From Atractiella rhizophila (taxonomy: Eukaryota), in assembly GCA_021432655.1 (NCBI GenBank), contig MU271400.1, positions 53,462-73,461 of the forward strand: a DNA stretch of 20,000 nt, in the 5' to 3' direction. The position numbers and the translations under genes were made by a program. Numbering within the stretch: the stretch's first letter is position 1; every line of letters starts with the position of its first letter. The notes under the pieces were generated by a model, which did not search any database, was not told the origin of the DNA, and saw only the letters and a list, made by a program, of their open reading frames with translations. Shown one piece after another: positions 1 to 19,149 of the stretch.

Positions 1-735
1 TGGATTGGGTTTTCCAGGCCGTTCATGCCCGAAGTGACTGCTGGTTGTGACAACTTGGACAACGGTAAGCCTCCATGGCCGCACCAGGTTCTGTGCTCAT
101 TCATTTATACCACTTAATGAACTCGGCATATTCAAGCCAATTAAGCCTTGTTCACGAAGCTGGTATTTCGTGTTCGGGCCGTTTGAACCCGAAAAGTTCA
201 ACTACCTAGATGTTGCCTTGTTAAGCAAATCTCGAAACAGTCTTTCCGCAAGTCTTCTCAGTGTTGATAACTAGCATGTCCGCATGGTCCAATTGCGGTA
301 ACACTTTTGACCAGAAGCAGAATAATTATTGTGAGCAGAAGAAAAATTATGCTGCTGCGCCACGGTTGATGACACATAGTCAGCCTAAGGTGGCTTGCGA
401 TTCCTTATTGTGCACGCGAGAAGCAAAATGCAGGCACCACGATTCAAGCGGACTTCTGCAGGTATAAGAGAATCATAACCAGAAACCTAATAAGACGAAC
501 CAGGTCACCATAATTGCAGTTCTTCTCATTTGTCCCTTCTTTCGTAAACAACATATAACTGCGACTGAAGTAAGGTCCAATAGTTCAAAAGAAGAGATAC
601 CCATTATCAGTCCTTGTTAACAACATGCCTTCAGCTGAAACGAAGCAACCTCTTTCGTTTCCTCTTTCTTATTTATTTCCTAACGCCTATCATTCCAGAA
701 CTTTATGGAACTATAGTGTTAGTACCAAGTCCGTT

Positions 736-1537
736 TCATGCGCTGCCTAAGTACTCCGCAAATTTCTTGGGCTTCCATTCTGGCCAGACTTTGACAGCAT
801 TGATGCGCTCCGAAGAGTCACCTGGCCCTAAATCGAATGTAGTCGTCCCATAACCGTCATCGATCTGCAAAGAAATGTTATTTGAGCGAAGCTGCTGAAG
901 AAAGAACAACAAACATGAACAAGAAGAAAGTTGACAAAGCCCGCAAGATCTTGGGTAAGCGGGAGGTCATCCCTCTTCACATGGACGATTTCACCACCAT
1001 ATTTGTTCTTCAGCAATTCCTGCAGTACGGACTATCGGTGAATACCTAACAGTTGAGAGAGAGGGGAAACATACGGCAACCTCTTTGATGGTCAGACGAT
1101 CTCCTTCCAACCTCCAGATAGAGTTGTACAGCTGCTCTTCCGGAAGCGTGGTCAACGACCAGGCGACGAAGCGACCGACGTCGACGAATGATGTGATGCT
1201 GAGGATACTGTTCCCGTTCAAGACCTTCACTTTCTCTTTCCCGAACAGCCTGCAGAAACAAGAATAAGTCTGATTGACATCTCATGGATGCAACAGGAAG
1301 GACTGGAGTTACCAAGACACATATTCTGCAAAAAGACTGTTGAGGTAGATCGCAGTAGGTATTCCTTCCTCTTCTGCCAGCTTGCGAATTGTGAGCTTCG
1401 GTGCAAGAGGGCTGTTTTCTGTCCGTTGAACCATGTCAGTGCTCTATGTCAAATTTAAATGAGTTCGAAGTCGACCTCACCTTTGGGAATTGAACCGTAT
1501 TCAGAGGGAACGAAAAGCTTGATTCCCGCTTTCTTCG
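736..1537 (-). CDS. NmrA / isoflavone-reductase-like NAD(P)-binding oxidoreductase, 3' exons (normally oriented part)
   Basis: Manual splicing on the minus strand gives AKKAGIKLFVPSEYGSIPK / ENSPLAPKLTIRKLAEEEGIPTAIYLNSLFAEYVSW / LFGKEKVKVLNGNSILSITSFVDVGRFVAWSLTTLPEEQLYNSIWRLEGDRLTIKEVA / ELLKNKYGGEIVHVKRDD...FLLVH / IDDGYG...WPEWKPKKFAEYLGSA*, stop TGA at 738-736. The 'AGxKxFVPSEYG' and 'DVGRFVA' segments are typical of NmrA/IFR-type atypical SDRs. Introns are GT-AG. Confidence 0.85.
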
Positions 1538-1586
1538 CTGATAATAGGAGAACAGGCATGAAGTAAGTACGGTTGATTACACGTAC

Positions 1587-2183
1587 CGCTTCAACACCCA
1601 CCCCTTAATAACTTCACTAGTGCGTTCCCCGTTCATCTCGACGACCTTCCCCTGGTTAGACTACGAGTGGAGTAGGTCGGGCGGCACCGTGGGGAGCGGC
1701 GACGACTAACTGCTAGTGGTTAGTACTTAGTGACGTTCAACGAAGTTACGCGCCGTTGTCACGCTCTGTACCGCTGTAGATACCTTAGACTCGCTGAAAT
1801 TTTTCCCTACTCCTACTCCGTCGACGTAGTCGAACTTCGAGTGTTCGTTTTGTAGAGTCTGTACTGAAAGTTCTGGAAGCGGTAGCGACCTTAAAGACCT
1901 TGGCAGAGATTCTGAAAGGACGTTTCACATCCAAATAGAGGGAGAACAAGTTTCGCCAAGGGACTTCACCGTTAGGTCAAAGAGCTGGAGGGTGCCCAGG
2001 GCTTCTATATGTAAGAGTCAGCGGTCCTGTTTGGACTGCAAGGGAGTGTAGGTTTGCAGTAACAGGAATTTCATCTAATAAGGAGCGGTCTATAGTAACG
2101 GCGAAGATAAGTCCCGTTCCCCTAACTCCAGGACTAGTCATGGTAACCACCCTTAGACGATCGCGTCCTTGGCAACCAATTTC
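1587..2183. other. Mirror-written block 1 (reversed without complementation); left boundary about 1587-1590
   Basis: It codes only in the complement-without-reversal reading. A minus-strand intron with donor GTACGT (1586-1581) and acceptor CAG (1540-1538) sits immediately to its left and accepts the block's last codons in frame. Confidence 0.85.
1862..2183. CDS. 5' exons of the same NmrA-like gene, readable only as the non-reversed complement of the given sequence
   Basis: The complement read left to right gives ATG at 1862, MTFKTFAIAGISGTVSKTFLQS, intron 1928-1978 (GTAGGT...CCAG), then FLDLPRVPKIYILSRQDKPDVPSHPNVIVLKVDYSSPDIIAASIQGKGIEVLISTIGGNLLAQEPLVK up to the gap edge. This is a Rossmann-fold start that continues into the AKKAG exon at 1537 (-). 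Confidence 0.9.
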
Positions 2184-2737
2184 NNNNNNNNNNNNNNNNN
2201 NNNNNNNNNNNNNNNNNNNNNNNNNNNNNNNNNNNNNNNNNNNNNNNNNNNNNNNNNNNNNNNNNNNNNNNNNNNNNNNNNNNNNNNNNNNNNNNNNNNN
2301 NNNNNNNNNNNNNNNNNNNNNNNNNNNNNNNNNNNNNNNNNNNNNNNNNNNNNNNNNNNNNNNNNNNNNNNNNNNNNNNNNNNNNNNNNNNNNNNNNNNN
2401 NNNNNNNNNNNNNNNNNNNNNNNNNNNNNNNNNNNNNNNNNNNNNNNNNNNNNNNNNNNNNNNNNNNNNNNNNNNNNNNNNNNNNNNNNNNNNNNNNNNN
2501 NNNNNNNNNNNNNNNNNNNNNNNNNNNNNNNNNNNNNNNNNNNNNNNNNNNNNNNNNNNNNNNNNNNNNNNNNNNNNNNNNNNNNNNNNNNNNNNNNNNN
2601 NNNNNNNNNNNNNNNNNNNNNNNNNNNNNNNNNNNNNNNNNNNNNNNNNNNNNNNNNNNNNNNNNNNNNNNNNNNNNNNNNNNNNNNNNNNNNNNNNNNN
2701 NNNNNNNNNNNNNNNNNNNNNNNNNNNNNNNNNNNNN
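2184..2737. other. Assembly gap (554 N)
   Basis: Run of N. Confidence 1.
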
Positions 2738-3491
2738 GTTCTTGTAGAGATAATAGTTCCGACTACAAAGGCTGGACCTAGTTTAGCGAGTTCGCCGGTT
2801 TCTTCATCTCCGAGTCAACTTGCCGTTTCCAGAGCTATAAGACCACTTGTTCAAGCATAATGGGGAGAATTTATCATTTGTGAGTTTAAGAAAAAGTCAC
2901 GACCGTAGTGACCTTGAGGAGTCCCACGTCTGCATTACTGGAAGGGGAAGTGGAGGTTGTGCCGCCTTCGGAAGTGTCTTCGCAAGTCTCAGTTGCAGCA
3001 ACCCGGGTAGCTCTGATGTTTCCGAAAGGATGGCGACGAATCCTTCCCTCATCTGTTCTTTTAGCAGAAGTAGAGGAGGTTGGAGCCTGAGGTCATGTTC
3101 CAACCGTGTAGCGAGCTAAAACTACGCTTGTTTCAACCTTACAGACCTGGCATGAGACAAAGCTTCTGCCGCGAGTTATACCGTTCAGTATTCGAACGTC
3201 AGCTCGAGCCTTTTCTTCCTAAATAACAGAAGGAGGAAGTAGGACCGACCCATTCGAAGCAAGAAAGGGAGGTAAAGGTGGACTGAGTTTCTAGTAATGT
3301 CCAATTCTGACTATACCCATAGAGAAGAAAGAAAACTTAATAGCCTCCGAGATTGATACAGTTGTCCTTGCCTAATACGGGGATACTGGGGTCTTCTCTC
3401 GTAGTTCGAAGTCAACCTGTTCAATGTGAGCAACTGTCTCTTTCTTTCAAGCCAGAAGACCCGGCGACTACCCGAGGGACAACCTAAAATT
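2738..3491. CDS. CsgA/C-factor-like classical short-chain dehydrogenase/reductase, central and C-terminal exons, readable only as the non-reversed complement
   Basis: The complement gives KNISIIKADVSDLDQIAQAAKEVEAQLNGKGLDILVN/NAGITG...FRVNVVGPIETTKAFLPLLRKGVDKKIVFISSNLG...GPYSVSKTALNMASHKLAVELGKEGFIVFLLHPGW/VKTDMG/TDYAPMTPEESIK...FWAADGLPVGF*. Introns at 2852-2898, 3251-3301 and 3318-3366 are all GT-AG; stop TAA at 3489-3491. SDR motifs NNAG, catalytic YxxxK (YSVSK) and HPGWVKTDMG are present. Confidence 0.93.
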
Positions 3492-4081
3492 CCATCATTT
3501 AACTTGGTAGGGACTGGTTAACAGAACTACGGTCAAAGTTTGTACTAACCCTTCAGCGGTAAAGGTTAAGCCGCGCTGAGAATGTTATCTCTTTGCGTGA
3601 CAAACAGGGCAAACGCCAAGAAGAAGACGGTAAACTTACAAGGGGAGAACCGAAGTGGTGCCGGATACTATAGTCTCGAGACCTCCACTGCTGTCTCGCC
3701 ACTCTTTTTTGTCTTGGAAGATGTTAAGACATATTTCCCTTCAGATTCAACTGGCGGCAGCTTTAAGACAGATTCTCGTCTAAAACCTCAATTGAGCACA
3801 ACCCGTCCGTTTAGCATGCGAGTTAAGCAATTGCTTATTCGACTCGAAGCCTATAAAAAACGGAGACTGAGTAGTAAGTTGTTAACCGATCTACAAGACG
3901 TTAGTTCAAATTCCCTATGATGTGATCGATACACAGTCCAACACTTCCTTCCTGTTTATCTATTACCACTCGGATGACCAATACCAAGAGAGTATGCACG
4001 GTTCAGGCAAACTTAACATTGCAGACGTAAAATAAAGTGCGGACGTGCTATGTCTAAAACACAATGTTGAATAGGAACGTA
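2738..4081. other. Mirror-written block 2 (reversed without complementation), 1344 bp
   Basis: Its complement starts C AAG AAC ATC and completes the codon left open on the minus strand at 4082 (AAG GAG CG|C AAG AAC = K-E-R-K-N). Confidence 0.92.
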
Positions 4082-4279
4082 CGCTCCTTAGCTAGCGCTG
4101 CGAGATTTGATGCAGATGAAGGATCCCGAGCTAGCGCAAAGACGGTGTTGTTGGAATCTGAGGACAGTTGCCTAACATACTCGAGACCTATACACCTTCA
4201 ATGAGCTCGGTTTGCATGAAAATAACACTGTACCCAATCCTCGAGACGATCCGGTAATAGCGTAAGACTTTCCAGCCAT
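4082..4279 (-). CDS. N-terminal exons of the same SDR (normally oriented)
   Basis: ATG at 4279; exon 4279-4234; intron 4233-4188 (GTACAG...ATAG); exon 4187-4082. Translation MAGKSYAITGSSRGLG LEYVRQLSSDSNNTVFALARDPSSASNLAALAKER contains the TGxxxGxG cofactor motif. Confidence 0.92.
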
Positions 4280-4370
4280 ATTTGTTGTTGGTTTCAGAGA
4301 TGATCAAGGAGATTAAGAGGTTTTGTGGAGCTGTGGGATTCCCTGTTGGTCCTGGAGCCCTTTTAAAGCA

Positions 4371-4376
4371 TTTATA
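4371..4376 (-). promoter_or_regulatory. Candidate TATA box of the SDR gene
   Basis: TATAAA on the minus strand about 90 nt upstream of the ATG at 4279. Confidence 0.4.
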
Positions 4377-5428
4377 AAGCCCGACGATGAAGGCTGATTA
4401 TTAGGCAACTCCGAAGAGTTCCAGTAAGATTCTTTCATTTCATCGCACTTTCTCTTCACTCCTGTAGGACTCTACGGCTCAAAGAGTGTGCAGTCGTTGA
4501 TAACCGCGGGTCGGCGTTAAGGCCGCCTTCTCATCCAGGAATAGACAGAAAAGTACTGTACATATCTTACACCGTGCGCAATGTTTTATCTCAAACGCTG
4601 ACGACATGAAGCAGCGGTTGGCCTGGGAAACAGTGAAGCACTGTACATATGCTTCGGTGACGGGTTGCGCCCGTTACTTGACTTTGGTTTCCTGAACGAG
4701 GAACAACTGATGGATTGGACGACGTGCCCATCTGGTCTACATGAATCGGAAGCCGACCCGTCAACGTACTGGTGAAGTAAGCCAGCGGGCACCATGAAAA
4801 GAACACACCACAGATCATAATGGAGTAACTCTTTTGAAACAGCGCGACCGGGCATTTGCGTTCTCTATGACCCTGGAATGCTGGAGCAATGGAGCAGCCA
4901 CGTTTGAGGCCACGACGATGTGTTACTTTGAAGCTATGGCCTTCATTCTGGCTCCTACTCTTTTATTCGCACAATAATAGCCAAAACGACAAGGCGCAGC
5001 GAAAAATTAGAGTCTTAAGAAGAGAAACAGAGATCTGCTTGAGGCAGCATGAAGTTAGCATGGGAAATCCTAGAGTGCATGGCAACTTGTAGTTCCTGCC
5101 TCCGTGGAATCTACTTGCACAAATCTGCATACTATGAGACAGTAACAGATGGCTTTCCTAAGGTTAGAGCGAGGAAAACATCAGGCGTTCAGACAGCGCG
5201 GATGACAATACCTGTCAATTACCGTTCTCGATTCGACTCCGGCCTGCTTCTTCATCTCATATGTTTTGGAATAATGCAGCTTTCATGCTGATCATTATTC
5301 GAGAGTAGGCGGAGAAATCATAACTTGAAGTGAATGAGACAGGCAGGACCAAGGTTCGGACAGTTTGAGAGTCGGCATTTTATGAGCGCAACGTTCAAGA
5401 CGCGTTCGTTGTTCAGAATCGGTACAAC

Positions 5429-8400
5429 ATGCCCTTCGTATACCATCCTACGCCTTCCCCTGGCCTTTCCTACTTCTCTGCTCTGCCTCCCCCGTCACCA
5501 CCCGTTCTTCCCCACGTAATCTCGAACTTGCGCATCCCAAAAGCGACACAGGCACTTCTGCCAACCCCATCCACTTCGAGCTCCTCGACCCATCCAACAC
5601 GAGTTTATTACCATGAGAGTGACGAGGAACTTGTATGGCATCGTTCTACGGTTGTGCATTCGAGAAAGTCAACCATTTACAGGATCTATGATCTTGCCAG
5701 TTACAAGGAGAAGGTCTCTTGTGCGACTTTTGGGATGTTCGAAATCTCATCAAGCAAAACCTTCTTGTACGAGACATCCACGACATTTCTCGGTTCGAGG
5801 TTCACGCTCGAGACCGCCTTGAATGCTCACTCGAAAGAAGAAGAGGAGAACCCAATTTTCGGACCCTGGCTTTCTCCTCCAGAACCAAAACCATCTTTTG
5901 AACCTGTACCGCAACGAGGTCTTCTGATAATCTTGGAGCGTCTAATGCTCGTCTACTTCCCCGATGGACGAGACTTCCTTCTCCGCGTACCATTCCCCGT
6001 TGCAGCAGTTGCGACTCTGCGAGTCGGGGTTCTCCTTGAAGCCGCGACGACGAAGCGGAGCACCTCAATATTTGAGCAGGACGAAGAGGAAGCGGGAGAT
6101 GTTCCACGCTTATACTCTACCACCACTCCCTTACAGGAACTTCGGCCGGTCGGAGGTATTGAGGTAGATGATCGGCTAGTCTGGGCAGAAGACAGTTGGT
6201 TGGTTTCGACGAAAGAGAGGGAGGGAAAGATTACAATCTGGGAAGTGAGAGAGGCGGAGGTGGTGGAAGATGACGATGAGGGAGATGGGAAGGAGAATGA
6301 AATGATTCTCGAGGAGTTAGACAATCCCCAAAGCAAGATGCTAGATATCGAGCAACATTTCCTTTCGAGTCGACAGCATGGAAGGTATCAATTCCTTCTC
6401 AGTCCTATGTTCAACATCGCCACAGATATACCATATACGTTCGTATTATTTTCATGACTAAGAGGTAACAGTTGACTAAATCTGATCATCATAGTGCAAA
6501 AGAAATAAAAGTGACTCGCGGCAACGACGTCCTCATCATCACAACCCCGCGCTCAACACACTCACTCACTTTCGCTCCTTCCACCTCTCCTTCGTCAAAC
6601 GAAATCTCCATCACTGAGTCTACAACCTTTGGAGAACCGTCCGTCCATACAACTGTGCGAACGCCGTACGGATCATCCGTTCTTCGATCCAACCCAGACA
6701 GGGGAACGGTCACCGTACTGGACCAAGGAGTGGAGGTCAGAGGTTCGATAGAAGGCGTACGATTCGTGGATAATCTAGCGCGCGACGGCTGGAAGGGTCT
6801 GAGACGGGTATTGGAGAGCGTGAAGGACTTATTTGGGGTAGAGAGGTGGAGTAAAGTCGAGGAAGGAGGATGGGATGCACTACACGATGTCTTAATTGGT
6901 CCGTCTGGCCCAGGAAATTCGAAGAAAGGAGCTGCGGAGGTGTGGGAGCGCTTCTTGGCCATGGAACGAGGAGAGGTGTTGGAGGAGGAAGAAGATGAGG
7001 AAATGATGCGCTTTAGAGGGGGAGAGAAAGAATGGCTGGAAGCGCTGATGATGCCTCTTCACGTGGTCTTTCAGGAGTTCCTTCTCTTTGAGAGTCAGCA
7101 CGCAGATGCCCGGAGGCTGGGCAATGTGATGGTGGACTTAAGTAGGAAGGTAGGATGGGTAGATTGGTGGGATTATTACATTCGGTTCGGTGGGAAGGAA
7201 AGCTACACGGGTACCTGGGGAGGTATGTTGTTCATCTTTACATCCTTCCTTTGTTGAAACATCTCTGTTTGAGCATAGAGTCTATCACCCATCCACCGCC
7301 GCCAGACTTCCTCGACTCCTTCCGCGTTGGTCTTCGCAATCCATCAGATATCTCTCCAGAGTTGTTCTCATGGGTTCCTCGCCCGTCACGATTATACGAT
7401 ATCGCGAGCGTTGCTCTGGCTTCCCGAGACGGATTGCAAGACGTAGACAAATACGCACGAATTTCAGCCCTACTGTTGGACGCCAATTTTTGGACTGCAG
7501 AAATGGTCGATGATCTCTCTTTAGGCTTCAGGGCCGTGGTTTCTGAAGTCATCGCCGTCATAAGACGATTCCCAATCCCAAATTTGGACAAGTCTCTTTC
7601 TGAATTGATCGGCAGAGAGGATATGAGGATGATGGCTCCGGATACGAATAAGAGGTTGGATTATAAGGACATGTGTGAGTGGAAGAAGTGGAGTCCTTGG
7701 AGGAATCTAGAGAAACCTATAACGTTCCCGACAATAAATCCTGTCCCTCACTTTTGGAAGAAGCCGTCCTCTCCACCATCTCAACCGGTCCATACCCAAA
7801 ACATCAGATTCTCGAAAGATCGTCGACTCGAAGATGTCGCAAGGATCTTGCAGTACATTGAGCCTGTCACTCTTTCGGTTCCATCTTTACAACAAGATCA
7901 CAATATCCCCAGCCGAACAAACACGTACATGGGACATTTGGCACTCAGGACTCTCTCTCTCCAGCTCGGTTTTGCCATGTATACTTTCCGGTCGCGGATG
8001 GCTCCGGAGGAAGGGATGGTGGATAAATTCGCCTTGAAGACTCCTATCTGTCTTTTTGCCAGGTTGTTACCGGGAAAGAGTTTGACCAAGTACGAAGACC
8101 CGAGTTTGAAGAAAGAATGGCCCACATTTCATCACGGTGTCGCCAGCGCGCTCATGTCGATTTATCCATCCGATCTCTCCGATATACCAGTCACTTCTCT
8201 GCATGCTACAGGGGACCGTGATCCCGCTCACGGAGGTGCCTTGTTGGGAATGGGATTAGCTGGTCTTATGAGGAGGATGACTAAGTTTCAGGCATTTCGA
8301 CACCTCACTGAGAAAGAGAACTTTACGACAATCGGTATTCTGCTGGGTCTCTCAGCTTCACATATCGGAACAGAATCTCCAGACGTCCTCTCGGTCCTCC

Positions 8401-10679
8401 TGCCCTTCATGCCAGCTTTCCATCCACCGGACTCCATTGCGTCTGCTCTTTCGCCCATCGTCCAATCTTCGGCCTTATTGGGTTTGGGATTACTGAATTT
8501 GGGTAGCGGGAAGAAGAGGCTGGCCGACACGATGCTACGAATTTTAAGTGGAATAACACTTTCCACTACATACAACGCGGATGCTTGTACAGAGGCTTAT
8601 GCTCTTTCCGCAGGTCTCGCGTTTGGCATGATTATGATAGCCAAAGGAGCAAAGACGGAGCAGCCTGGTGACGTGGGAACGCTCAAGACCTTTCGAAAAC
8701 TCATAGGAGACTTTGAATATTCTCCCATCCTCGACAGGAAGAAGAAACCAGAGACGGTTATCGACGTCAATATAACTTCTCCTGCGGCTACCATCGCTCT
8801 TGGATTAATGTATTTTAACACTGGGAGGAAAGACATCATCAACATACTCGAGATTCCAGATTCCAAGGTACGGTTGGATTACGTTCGATCCGACCTTGTT
8901 CTCCTTCGAACTTTAGCGAGACATTTAGTGATGTGGGAAGACATCTCCCCTAGTATAGAGTGGATCAACAAATCGTTACCTCCGCTGTTAGCCCCGCGAC
9001 AAGACGGGATGATTTGGCGAGACACAGAGCTCCTGCTAGCAAACTGGTGTATTAGAGCTGGAAGTGCTTTTGCCATGGGTTTGAAGTTTGCAGGAACTGG
9101 GAGTCATCTCGCTTTCACTGCCTTGAAGGGGATGTGCGCGCATTTTAGAGCTATGATGCCTCAAATCCGAGGTCAGTTTCTTCTGGTCATCTGTTTAGGA
9201 CATTTAACCAACTTTTGAGTCCCACCTTGAACAGGGAGAAGTCTCGATGCCACAACTCGCCGTCATGCTCTTCGCACCTGTTCCAACATCGCTTACATCT
9301 CACTCTGTCTCGTGATGGCAGGTACTGGTAATGTAGAGGTTCACAAAAAGCTGCGAGAGCTGCATGGCATTGTGGGAGAGTTGATAACCTATGGACAACA
9401 TGTAGCACATCACCTCGCATTAGGTCTGCTCTATCTCGGTGGCGGCCGTTATACTGTTGGGACGAGTCCAGCAAGCATCGCTGTCCTCATCGCCGCCTTC
9501 TTCCCCATCTTCCCAAAGGATCCGTCAGACAACAGAGCTTACATCCAAGCCTATCGCCATCTCTGGGTACTCGCAGCAGAACCTCGTTTCGTATCTACCC
9601 GTTCCACAGATGGAAGCAGCGTTGGTGCCCCAATACCTATAAGGGTGTGGACAAAAGACGCTCCACCTCCCCGACAAAACTGGAGCGCCTTCAACCCCAT
9701 CCCTGAGCTCAGGCACATCAAGTCTATTTCGATCAACGGGTCACTCCACTTCCCTAATTCGTTTCAACCCGATCCGACGAAAACGAACGGATACGTCTAT
9801 CGATCTTTCCTCAGGAATCGAACAGTATACGCTACACCGAAAAGGAATCCCGAAGCTATGTGGTTACCAGAACTGGACAACTTCCCTTTCTTTGTTGATG
9901 AAAGCCTTCTTGTGGAAGCTGCAAAAGAGGCAACGGTACAGGCAGTCGAAGAGAAGCAAATAAATGACCATGACTCCCTTTTACCAGCAAATGTCGTCGC
10001 ATATTCACTCTGGAACAAGTTCAGGAGACACGATTTCACTTCAACTCTCTTGCGATCGTTGATACAGTCCCTCGCGACAGATGATTCCCTTTCTCTCATT
10101 TCGCCTTTCCACTCCCTTTTTGACCATGCGTACGATCTCTCTCCCACGTTATCAAACTCTACGACAATGGAAAAAATTATTCAGGCGCGTCACAGTGGGT
10201 TCCTGATGGAGTTTTACGTCTCCTCTGGAGGTGAGGGTGGAGGAGAGCTTAAGACTAGTCTATTCGACAGATACATCAGGTTTCCAGAGATCGACGATAC
10301 ATGGGGTCGAGATAAGCGTCACGATAAAATGGCCTCCCTCTCCCTCTTCATCGAACGTGAACTGGAAAACATTCTCGTTTCCTCTACCTCCTCCCGTTTA
10401 ACTCGAGATTTCATCACGTTCCTCACATCCAAACAATCTCACCGATATCCTGCGGATGAGCGACGGAGAGCCGATTTGTTGACGTTGTTGTGGAAGTTGA
10501 ATGTGCCCACGTCGTTTGAGCAACTAGAAGGCATGAGAAAAGCGGTGGAGGAGATGGAGGGCGAGTGGGAGGAGAAATGGGACGCAGTGTTGGCTGAGCG
10601 ATGGGGAATGAGAGGCGGAGTGTCGTTCAAGGTGCTAAGGGAAGGGTGGAGAATGGCCAGACAATCGGAGGATTTTTAG
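5429..10679 (+). CDS. APC1: Anaphase-promoting complex/cyclosome subunit 1, about 1670 aa
   Basis: Four long ORFs join in frame via introns 6385-6494, 7223-7278 and 9172-9234. APC1-typical segments: RFSKDRRLEDVARIL, EWPTFHHGVASAL, PC-repeat stretches (HGGALLGMGLAG, GILLGLSASHIGT, SPAATIALGLMY), MAGTGN, YGQHVAHHLALGLLYLGGGRYT, DNRAYIQAYRHLWVLAAEPR. The first intron boundaries are the least certain. Confidence 0.93.
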
Positions 10680-13714: not shown

Positions 13715-16700
13715 ATGGCTCCATCGTTGGACACAGTCCTGCAAGCCACTCTATTAGATCCTAGCGTAAGTTCCCAGTTATTATTGTTACCTCAAACCAC
13801 TGACGACATTGGCCAAACGGACGGACAGGCGCGTGTCCCCCCGACTTATGCGCCTGCTCTCACAGCGCATCTCGCTCTCTTCCCCAATGACACGCATTTC
13901 GCTATCTCCTTCGAACCTGGGAGTGGTTACGGTACAGTGACATGCTTGGAGAGGGGTTGTGAGATGGATATCCCCCTTGGAGCAGCCAAAGGGAGAGGAG
14001 GGGGAAAGAGAATTGGGTTTGGAGAGCTGAAACATTATCATGTGCGTTCTCTCTTCATGTTAGTTGGTGCTATTGTGGACGATGGCGAGTTTCCACACCT
14101 GTGTTAATAGACAGAGAGTTGTTCTCACTACTTGGGAGATATGGACGAGATGTTCGATATCAGAGGATACTTTATTCCTATTGCCGTTGTGTTCAAAAGG
14201 CGATTCAACGATGAATTCCATTGGAAAATGAGACCGAAAGCGTCACACATTTCTCAATCCATAACTTCTCAAGTGAGCCGCACACTTCCCGGTTCTTAGG
14301 ATGACTAAATGCTCGTCTAGAGGAAATAGGGGAGAATACGTTTCGTGTGACATCCTCATTTACTTGTTCTCCCTTTGTTAGAAATTCGGATTTCGTTCTC
14401 ATTAAGAGAATAGCGTGTCACTCACGAAATTCACATCATTGGCTCTGTGCCGAAGAAACGCAACGCGTCTCTTGCATTCCTACCTATAATGTACTTTACG
14501 GTCTATTCAGCAGCTACAAAAGAGTGGACCGCTCCCCTTCCGAATTATTTGCAGGAGTTCGTTTCGAGTAAAGCAAAATCGAGCAAGCCACATGGTCGTG
14601 TTTGTCCCAACTTTCTTGAACATTAGCAATGCGAGCCTCCCTCTGAAATTATTTGATAAAAGGATACTGCGGCTACAGCAGGAGGCCCAAGATGCCTTTC
14701 TTCAGTTTCTCGACACATTACGCCTCTGCAGTGTTTTCGATATACTTGACATTGCCGTCCTGGTTATTGATTTCTGAATGACTGGGAATGTTCGTAACAC
14801 TTAATATGTCTCTGTTGGTAGAGTTTTGTCCTTCTGAATAATCCCCTGTAAATATTGTGCCGAATGATTAGAACAAGACTGAGCTCGAGTCGAGGCTGAC
14901 TATCTCCACAGAATCACATAATGACCCATCCGACACATTCGCGTATGCGAGACGAGCGCGTCCTTCAGTTAGAGCAGCTGACGAAGAAGTCAGTCGAGAA
15001 GAAGAAGAAGAAAAAGCGAACTTCAGACGAAGCTGAACTCCCGGTTTTCTCTTCCGTGCAAGGGAATAAAAAGACAAGGATTGACAGTATTGATCTCGAC
15101 AACATGAAAATGACAAGGGAGGTGGGCCGAGTTGAACCTATCGATTTGGAGGCGATGGATATGGAAACTCCTACCCGAGTGACTGCATTTAGCAGGGAGA
15201 GGGAGGCGAATAGAGTGGCTATCCAACGCTTCGAGACCTCACCTGCTACGGCTTCGACGTCCAGTAGAATCCATCCTTCCACCTCAGCGGTGGCGCTTGA
15301 CGTGTTACCTCCGAATTCGCCGCAGAAGTCGAAATTAGGCAAGCTGATTGTTATGTTCAAAGAAGCGGTGGAGAAGGAGGGACAGTGTGAGAAAGAGATC
15401 TCGGATGGGATCAGATATCTTTCGAACGAGCAAATACGAGCTTTGCAAGCACAGGTGAAGAGCTGGCAGGCGATAAAGGAGCTGGTTAGGAAACAGATCG
15501 GCGATGGAAAGGCCAACCAAATACTCGCTGCCACCACTGGAGCAATGACACCTGCCAGACCCACTTTCAACGCGAACGCCATTGCAGGACCTTCATCTGT
15601 CCCGAATGTGAACAGACACTACCCTCACTGCCATCCCATCTGAAGGTAGACGAACGGGAAGAACGTCTCTGCCTTCTTCCAACACAGCATTCGGTGTGGC
15701 CACCCACGCAGCTGTCGCACTCCTCTCTGGACAAGCCTACCTCCCGGACCAGTTCGACCTTGACGATGACGACGACTACTCGTATCTTCAGCATCGTGCG
15801 AGCGGGGCAGAGAGAAGAGAGGAGCTGGAGAGCCTGATGAAGAAGGCGGCGGAAGGAGACTTCGAGGGAGAGGGCATGACGGTAGGAGAGGCAATGCAAA
15901 AGTTGGGATTGGACGACGACGCGACCCCATTACCTGGAAGCCAGATCAACTTGATGCCTCATCAGATTTTGGGTGTGGCATGGATGCTTGATCAAGAGAA
16001 CAGCAAGAATAAGGGAGGGATTTTAGCAGATGAGATGGGTTTGGGGAAAACCGGTTAGCTTCCCTCCGTCCGCAACGAGGTTCAATTCTGAAAGGTAGAA
16101 AAACAGTCCAGACCATAGGCCTATTGGTGCAGAATCCTCCGCAAGACTCGAGGCGACGAACTACGCTCATTGTTGCTCCCCTCTCTCTGCTCGACCAGTG
16201 GAAAAATGAAATCATGCAGTACGCTGATGGGCTCGAAGTCCTAATTTATCATTCTTCCGGAACTAAGGTAAAGACCACAAAGGAGTTGCAGGAATACGAT
16301 GTCGTGCTCACTAACTACGAAACGTTTGTACTTTCTAACCTCGACCTTGGCAAATTCTGAGGAATGTTTGAAAACTAGGCTGAGATTTCAATGGCCAGAC
16401 GATCATCTTGATGAATTAGGCAGATATCATGAACCGAAGGAGAAGAAGAAGAAGAAAAGAAGGAGCGAGTTAGAAATGTTTGAAGAGAGCGATGGTGAAA
16501 GCGAGGATGTCGAGAAGCGCGAGAGGAAAGGTTCAGCTTCCCCCGTTTGCTCTCTTCGAGTTGCATCTAACCTGAAAGGAACAGCTGGGATTCTCATAAA
16601 GATGAAGTGGTACAGGGTTGTTCTAGGTGCGCCATTGCCTTCTCGATCCGGTATAACCTACTCATTCGCCCATGGACAGATGAAGCTCGTGCGACTTCCT

Positions 16701-19149
16701 ACTCTTTATTTTGACATTCCTTACTCTGCAGCAGACATCATCCGCAATCCAAACTCCCTTACATCTAAGGCGATAACTAGAGGCCTCGATGCAAAGTACC
16801 GTTGGTGTCTCTCAGGAACGCCGCTGATCAATGGACTCAAAGACGCCTTTCCGCTACTCAAATTCATCAGACTTCGAGTCTACAGTGACTGGGTCGAGTT
16901 CAATCGGCATGTGAGTCCAGAATTTCAATTCAAACACTGAACTAAAGGGTTGTAGGTCATGAAAGGAATGGGATCAGAACCTGGAAACGCTGGGCAGCGC
17001 CTTCAAGTCATCTTCAAGAGCTGTATGTTCAGGAGAAGAAAGACCTCCACGCTGGGAGGGAAGCCAATGTGGCTCGTTCGTTCCTTTAATTTATATCACT
17101 GATGTCTCGTCTCAGCCTCAAATTGCCTCCGAAAGTCATTGAAGATGTTCCTTTGGAGTTCTCCGAAGACGAACGACAGGTGCGTAGGCATTGACTACTA
17201 CGGCGTACTTCTGAGAGAATCACAGATCTACGCGGCTGTTGAAAGGAGGGAGAAGGCGAAGTTCAACAAGTTTTTGAGGTTAGTTCTGCGTCTATAATGT
17301 ACCCACAATCCTAATCCTAGTCTAGGGAAGGCACCGTACTCAAAAACTTTGCTCAAGTGCTAGTAATGCTTCTCAGGTTGCGGCAGATCTGTAACCATCC
17401 TTGGTAAGTAAGCCTCACAGCAGTATCTATCGCTCAAGGTATCAATATATCTCAGTCTTATTACTGAAGATGTCAGCACTCATCGTTATCAGTCGGGGAA
17501 TTATTTAACCTCAAATGCAGATGAATCCGTTCGAACTAAGCGCAGAAGATACGAAGTCTGAGGTAGCTCGAGCTTTGCAAGAATCTGGACACGATTTTGT
17601 GATGCGCCTGAAGAGAATGTTGCGGGACAGAGTATCCATTTCTCAGTCAGCTTCGAAATTATTGACGTGTAAATGCAGTTCGAGGAGAAGGTGGAAGCGG
17701 AAAAAAAGGGGAAAGACGTTGAGGTCTTCGACGAATGCCCCGTCTGTGCCGACACTCTGGAGAACAGCTACGGTATGGCCTATTGCTCCTGAGAAACTGA
17801 GCTTACAAACGGAACCACAGCCGTTGCTCCGTGTGCCCACATCTTCTGCTCTCCATGTCTAGAGAAGATATGGACCAGCCCGCCACCGATGAACGATCTC
17901 AACGACCGCATCGCCCCTCAATATGCCGAAGAAGAGCGAGCTTGTCCCACCTGCAGGTTTGTGACCCATCAAACATTGAAGCGTTCTAAACTTTCAGCAG
18001 GGGCCCTATTTGCAGGCAGCGGACCTATAATATCGAAGCGTTTGAGCCATCTCGGGATGATATGCTTGGGGCCAAGCGCCTGAAAACCTTGCTTTTCAAT
18101 GAGGAAGATTCTGACAGTGATGACGATGGGTCGGTTCGTGTCCCTGCTCTGATTCTGTCCTTACAGGATGCTCACTTATAGCCAGCTCAAGGATTTTAAT
18201 GTTCATGGAAATGAGAGTTCTGACGTTGAATGGCGACCAAAGCTTGAAAATAACGGCAAAGGTGTCGTGAAAAAGCCCATAATAATTGATGAAATAAAAA
18301 TGGTAGGTGATTTGCTCCGATTATTTTTCTCCCAATTGAACTTCAACAACAGGAAATCAACGATGAAGCGGAAGTGGATGGAGCCGTCTTCGTGAAGAAA
18401 ATGTCATCTCAAGAGGGTAAACCTGTCGTCAAGCTGAAGGGTGATAAGGAGATCATGAAAATGGTTCAGAATTTTGACAAGATGATCCCGTCCACAAAAA
18501 TGACTTGGATGTTAAATACAATAAAGTCCTGGCGAGCAACTGATCCAGACGACAAGGTAAGATGGGCTTATTGACGGTTTACACTGACTGTTCATCTACA
18601 GGTGGTTGTCATAAGTCAGTGGACGAGCTGTCTTGACATTCTCGCGAATTACTTATCTGAGAACAACATTCGCCATGTCAGCTACACAGGAGACATGAAG
18701 GCTGACGAGCGAGCAGAAGTTGTGCAAAAATTCCAAAAGGGAAAGATCAAGTATCTGCTCCTCAGCTTAAAGTGTGGTGGTGAGCATGTTTGCTAGCCTT
18801 TAATATTTTCTCACCTGTTGAGCAGGGGTTGGTCTTAATCTCACCAAAGGGAATCGCATCATCCATTTTGATCTTGCTTGGTCTGAAGCCGTGGAAGCTC
18901 AAGCTTTTGACCGATGTCATAGGATCGGCCAGAGAAAGGCCGTTCGTGTGAACAGAATTACAATCAAACAAACTGTGGAGGAGAGGATCAAAGAGCTGCA
19001 GGAACGCAAAAGGTTGTTGGTCGAATCTTCACTTGGGGAGGGTGGTGGAAAAAGTGCGTCGCTTATTCACAGTTATCCATGCTCATGAGCTCCTAGAAAT
19101 TGGTAGACTCTCTGTCCAGGACCTCTGCTTCCTTTTCGGCGTTGCGTGA
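13715..19149 (+). CDS. SNF2-family ATPase with embedded C3HC4 RING finger (Rad5/Rad16/Uls1-Ris1-like), many introns
   Basis: Q motif LMPHQ; motif I GGILADEMGLGKT/VQ; TTLIVAPLSLLDQW; motif II VVL/DEA/HIIRN; motif III WCLSGTPLIN; LLRLRQICNHP; RING CPVC...PCAHIFCSPC...CPTCR; PSTKM; VVISQWTSCLD; LLSLKCGGVGLNL; motif VI QAFDRCHRIGQ; C-terminal RLSVQDLCFLFGVA*, stop at 19147-19149. The helicase/RING part (about 15750-19149) is secure; attaching exons 13715-14041 and 14912-~15607 is less so. Confidence 0.85.
14997..15016 (+). repeat. Short (GAA/AAG)n tract encoding a poly-Lys stretch (possible nuclear localisation signal); a similar tract lies at about 16440-16462
   Basis: GAGAAGAAGAAGAAGAAAAA encodes EKKKKKK(R); the second tract encodes EKKKKKRR. 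Confidence 0.5.

Follow-up and report, generated by a model that had tools for sequence, protein, structure and literature searches.

The public genome assembly of Atractiella rhizophila (GCA_021432655.1) almost certainly holds a sequence-handling error, and no property of the DNA itself, at a scaffold gap in contig MU271400.1, where the two pieces adjoining the gap have each been reversed in place without being complemented. We analysed 20,000 nt of this contig (positions 53,462 to 73,461 of the forward strand), a stretch that we call the window and by whose numbering all positions are given. The two mirrored pieces, here the left and the right block, adjoin one and the same gap, are of unrelated lengths, and join the normal sequence with no base lost or gained (Table 1). 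A sequence-only reading of the window had described mirrored DNA beside the gap; the right block that it delimited proved exact to the base, but it missed the second block to the left. Elsewhere the window has the look of ordinary fungal nuclear DNA, its genes interrupted by short introns. Its normally written neighbours include an ANAPC1-like (anaphase-promoting-complex subunit 1) gene at about 5429-10679 on the plus strand (PF12859, E 6.6e-13; PC_rep, E 1.1e-4) and an SNF2-related helicase at about 16299-16940 on the same strand (PF00176, E 6.1e-14).

Table 1. Layout of the gap region and of the two genes that cross into the mirrored blocks, in window coordinates as deposited
Feature	Position	Strand or reading	State or evidence
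Normal sequence	1-1540		as written
Left mirrored block (643 nt; in-place reversal, no complementing), next to the gap	1541-2183		direction test, contigs, P0002
Scaffold gap, 554 N, sole N run of the window	2184-2737
Right mirrored block (1344 nt; in-place reversal, no complementing), next to the gap	2738-4081		direction test, contig, tblastn
Normal sequence resumes	from 4082
SDR exon 1	4279-4234	-	normally written
SDR intron 1, 46 nt, GT..AG	4188-4233	-	normally written
SDR exon 2, first 106 nt	4187-4082	-	normally written; ends mid-codon on CG
SDR exon 2, remainder	2738-2851	complement, left to right	mirrored
SDR intron, 47 nt, GT..AG	2852-2898	complement, left to right	mirrored
SDR exon 3	2899-3250	complement, left to right	mirrored
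SDR intron, 51 nt, GT..AG	3251-3301	complement, left to right	mirrored
SDR exon 4	3302-3317	complement, left to right	mirrored
SDR intron, 49 nt, GT..AG	3318-3366	complement, left to right	mirrored
SDR exon 5 including stop	3367-3491	complement, left to right	mirrored
NmrA-like exon 1, ATG at 1862	1862-1927	complement, left to right	mirrored
NmrA-like intron 1	1928-1978	complement, left to right	mirrored
NmrA-like exon 2, 5' portion	1979-2183	complement, left to right	mirrored
NmrA-like rest of exon 2 and exons 3-6, stop at 738-736	736-1540	-	normally written
P0157 false start MPVLLLS, first six codons and one base	1541-1559	-	read from the mirrored block as deposited

The right block hides most of a short-chain dehydrogenase/reductase (SDR) gene whose 5' end is written normally. 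The sequence-only reading had placed the N-terminus on the minus strand, ending mid-codon, and had proposed that the first base of the block completes the codon; this is what we find, since the complement of base 2738 turns the split codon at 4082 into CGC (Arg) and the reading frame is kept. Read onwards from there as the complement, left to right, the block yields the intact SDR with three introns that had been claimed, and the model across the junction comprises 252 aa, with a stop codon that ends at 3491. Classical SDRs are defined by the cofactor motif TGxxxGxG, by NNAG and by the catalytic YxxxK, and the model carries all of these: TGSSRGLG at residue 9 (the glycine-rich cofactor motif), NNAG at 88 and YSVSK at 174, together with HPGWVKTDMG at 203. 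In total, 603 of the 759 coding bases of the gene, about 80%, are hidden by the mirroring.

Database comparisons agree with this model. A search with the normally written SDR exon picked out one protein among 22 candidates, P0001, whose source name is 'NAD(P)-binding protein, partial [Atractiella rhizophila]' and which matches Pfam adh_short (E 1e-27). Against the window as deposited, a tblastn search with P0001 aligns residues 1-39 only (4197-4081) and stops at the junction. With the blocks reversed in place, as the sequence-only reading had advised for the right one, the same query spans the junction with residues 1-76 (97.4% identity) and 77-199 (98.4%), at E 1.3e-107. The full-length member of the P0001 cluster, P0155, is identical to the model at 250 of 252 residues, scores 119 bits against PF00106 adh_short (E 2e-34; cut-off 26.6), and resembles solved reductases of the sniffer type (PDB 7xwl, E 2.9e-33; sniffer itself, 1sny, E 3.8e-27). 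We also built a local SDR profile HMM from 115 homologues of 230-275 aa, the 149 new representatives listed having been reduced by 34 that were dropped for length. This HMM matches the model with E 5e-91 over profile positions 3-237 of 242. On the right block it detects complement frames with E 5.6e-37 and 8e-14, while the best frame of either true strand reaches E 2.1. Of the 18 open reading frames listed for a Pfam scan, six running through the N run were left out, and none of the other 12 (true-strand frames of at least 50 aa wholly inside the two blocks) reaches the Pfam cut-off, in line with the earlier statement that neither true strand of the right block encodes anything recognisable. 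With the classical motif set and similarity over its full length, the hidden gene is, as judged from its sequence, an ordinary sniffer-like short-chain dehydrogenase with nothing unusual in the gene itself. A metagenome scan with P0001 as query returned 328 stretches matching the pattern and among them a single relative (L001), at 29% identity.

The left block bears the first third of an NmrA-like gene. Here too the reading of the complement runs left to right, ends at 2183, and resumes base-exactly on the minus strand at 1540. The resulting model has 281 aa in six exons with five GT..AG introns, and 274 of its 281 residues are identical to P0002, a protein that covers profile positions 4-298 of 298 of Pfam NmrA (PF05368) with E 3e-16. 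Aligned with the window as deposited, P0002 matches from residue 88 only; once the blocks are reversed in place, the alignment begins at residue 1, with residues 1-110 at 1862-1482. The first 107 codons thus lie in mirrored sequence, and the NmrA-like gene itself is ordinary.

The boundaries of the blocks follow from these genes and from public reads. Reading frame alone had placed the left boundary at 1537/1538; it was shifted by one codon to 1540/1541 because of the contig letters at 1540, with which P0002 agrees (LVKAAKKAG). A reversal of 1541-4081 as one piece was considered as well and is excluded, because it would swap the junction partners (2738 with 4082; 2183 with 1540), and the complement of 2738, not that of 1541, follows on from the exon that stops at 4082. 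After in-place reversal of each block separately, both genes cross their junctions in frame and base-exactly.

A test that makes no use of genes gives the same picture. We compared third-order Markov log-likelihoods of the forward and the reversed reading, with the model trained on both strands of the remaining window. In 162 normal windows of 643 nt the difference averages +19.8 per kb (sd 6.3) and is never negative, whereas the left block scores -20.4 per kb. In 148 normal windows of 1344 nt, likewise without a negative value, it averages +20.0 per kb (sd 3.5) and does not fall below 12.1; the right block scores -17.4 per kb. The direction-dependent composition therefore changes sign inside both blocks and is positive everywhere else in the window, and mirrored and normal windows of 0.6-1.3 kb are separated by about 6 to 10 standard deviations. 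Over 3492-4081, the two fifths of the right block that are non-coding, only the direction test indicates the mirroring.

Public sequencing runs show ordinary orientation at the places where the deposited sequence departs from it. We used two DNA runs from one sample (X1 and X2) and one RNA run from a root metatranscriptome (X3). As the two DNA runs come from a single sample, which may be the source sample of the assembly, they count as one line of support. Their contigs on positions 1-6500 match up to 1540 and resume from 4082. At the right junction, a contig of 693 letters matches from 4082 and is preceded by 202 loose letters, of which the last 30 were examined and equal the reverse of 2738-2767 at 30 of 30 positions. 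At the left junction, a contig of 318 letters continues past 1540 by eight letters, all eight being the reverse of 2176-2183; this 8-mer has no other occurrence in the window on either strand. The public contigs thus carry the ordinary orientation across both junctions. The share of sampled words from 2738-5425 present in X1 and X2 is 0.40 and 0.36, approximately the normally written half of that stretch. No contig of X1, X2 or X3 falls on 1541-2183 or 2738-4081, and every bin between 1737 and 3906 has a depth of 0; neither missing cover nor zero depth is by itself usable as evidence. In X3, a contig of 163 letters on 4110-4318 matches SDR exons 1 and 2 without mismatch and with the 46-nt intron spliced out. 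The splice joins 4185 to 4232 with 46 positions skipped, and the intron reads CT..AC on the plus strand when the cut is set two places further right. A natural root sample thus contains spliced transcripts of the SDR gene.

The runs differ from the window at three further places. At position 731, five bases beyond the NmrA-like stop codon (736-738), one X2 DNA contig and one X3 RNA contig lose their match leftwards and end in 69 and 71 loose letters; the 3' region may differ between haplotypes or in structure. At the start of the window, X1 and X2 contigs contain a joint at which 137 is followed by 30 letters of other sequence and then by 5, which suggests a small rearrangement or a repeat difference. 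Over 4543-4887, X1 holds two contig forms, one with no differences in 345 letters and the other with 15 differences and six gaps in 343, a pattern that suggests either two haplotypes or two copies within the sample.

The mirrored sequence has already left its mark on a public protein. P0157, a 197-aa member of the P0002 cluster, derives from a contig of 73,461 nt and agrees at all 197 residues with the protein obtained by splicing the deposited window from an ATG at 1559. It lacks 84 residues of the full NmrA-like protein, and its NmrA match begins at profile position 93 (93-298 of 298). Because P0157 equals the deposited reading, codons of the mirrored block included, the error was already there when the record was annotated. 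The other members of both protein clusters come only from a contig of 16,765 nt under the same organism name, and no contig of at least 20 kb was found to supply an intact public copy of either gene. For the SDR gene, a search for a truncated model with a read-through tail found no candidate among public proteins of 23-76 aa, and among longer ones P0001 was the sole hit. That a public SDR model is missing at this locus is weakly supported, since the searches carried limits of length and word.

The 16,765-nt contig bears two SDR copies, P0155 (252 aa) and P0001 (partial, 204 aa), and at least three NmrA-like copies, P0156, P0002 and P0003. The presence of so many copies on one contig means that the SDR/NmrA pair may be tandemly duplicated. 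Such a duplication could be the reason for the assembly break here, and the gap of 554 N may conceal more than 554 bases.

Several other origins of the mirrored blocks have to be weighed against a handling error in the record. The sequence-only reading had raised the possibility that the data were otherwise manipulated. The public record would be correct if the mirror-writing had come in after deposit, for example while the window was being prepared or because a control had been planted. The position of the blocks beside the N run fits this idea, as some N runs in these data can be withheld stretches, but P0157, which takes six codons and one base from the mirrored block, shows that the annotators' gene caller saw the mirrored sequence, and this effectively rules out manipulation after deposit; with no intact public copy of either gene from a contig of at least 20 kb besides, we consider such an origin very unlikely. 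An ordinary biological inversion or a mis-oriented contig is a common type of orientation error at gaps and shares with our case the orientation fault at a scaffold gap. Either would leave the block as the reverse complement of the true sequence, still readable in six frames, and the blocks here are not reverse complements: the SDR profile finds nothing in the reverse-complement and plus frames that compares with its matches in the complement frames, and the direction test is strongly negative although it was trained on both strands and is blind to a strand swap. We take this reading as refuted by the P0001 alignments, the profile scores and the direction test.

DNA strands are antiparallel and polymerases copy 5' to 3', and we know of no process that yields a pure reversal of DNA. 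The deposited blocks would nevertheless be real if the isolate truly carried two reversed, non-complemented stretches made by an unknown mode of DNA synthesis, whether by parallel-strand copying or by 'swinger' exchange of A<->T and C<->G combined with inversion. Both the general and the specific form of this idea strike us as extremely improbable. The closest idea in print is that of Seligmann, who proposes such an exchange for GenBank records, for example for a stretch of Kamimuria wangi 16S rDNA (PMC4942731). The likeness lies in a stretch of a record that becomes sensible only after base-by-base complement exchange and that switches sharply to normal sequence. The proposal differs from our case in treating the exchange as real polymerase behaviour, whereas here the public contigs are ordinary at both junctions and continuity needs reversal. 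Complementing in place fails to restore that continuity, because the 5' exon of the SDR gene lies to the right on the minus strand: the exchanged block is not colinear with its flanks, running left to right while the exon arrives from the right at 4082. Real blocks would moreover have destroyed both genes, yet their coding sequences have stayed intact under the mirroring and share 97-99% identity with the other copy. The reading as real DNA survives only in so far as X1 and X2 may come from another isolate.

As to how the record acquired the error, the sequence-only reading had suggested a gap-extension piece that was complemented but not reversed, and the contigs that continue with the reverse of the block (30 of 30 at the right junction) bear out its prediction about reads and support such a handling artefact. 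We infer that both pieces are gap extensions and that the fault lay in complementing each without reversing it. On this view the gap once measured about 2.5 kb, and a gap-closing or finishing step lengthened the contig on its left by 643 nt and the one on its right by 1344 nt, so that 554 N remained. When the pieces were turned to scaffold orientation, each would then have been complemented and its reversal omitted, piece by piece. A fault of appending in place of prepending would mirror the leftward-growing piece only, and a complement-only fault acting on each piece is therefore favoured. The same outcome would arise from a hand edit in finishing, 'reverse' having been chosen for 'reverse complement' in a sequence editor with no automatic gap-closing step. 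Two unrelated lengths at one common gap fit two pasted finishing reads or sub-assemblies, but nothing in the window separates a hand edit from an automatic step, and a software fault predicts cases at other gaps; we think a hand edit unlikely, if by no means far-fetched. It is also possible, though more doubtful than likely, that the two blocks are the visible trace of a software fault that recurs systematically; extension pieces would then be mirrored at many gaps left partly closed, both here and in other assemblies from the same pipeline.

The nearest parallel to the handling error is found in database records in which a sequence was entered reversed where the reverse complement was meant. 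Such records likewise read correctly only when reversed, have base-exact junctions, are opaque to six-frame tools and come with ordinary reads. They differ in that the whole submitted sequence is affected, while here it is two internal scaffold pieces flanking a gap. Judged by titles and the openings of abstracts, we found no literature on mirrored gap flanks in genome assemblies.

The mirrored blocks are no biological feature, and their value is for quality control only. In consequence of the error, one public scaffold conceals the greater part of an SDR gene along with the first third of an NmrA-like one, and the mirroring has yielded at least one wrong public protein, P0157. Mirrored sequence escapes BLAST, gene finders and any quality control that works without reads. 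If the fault were systematic, genes adjoining gaps would be silently lost, many of them hidden from every six-frame tool. The Markov comparison of forward and reversed readings could scan whole assemblies for mirrored blocks without a reference, and this locus of A. rhizophila serves both as a correction to the public record and as a test case for such a simple direction scan.
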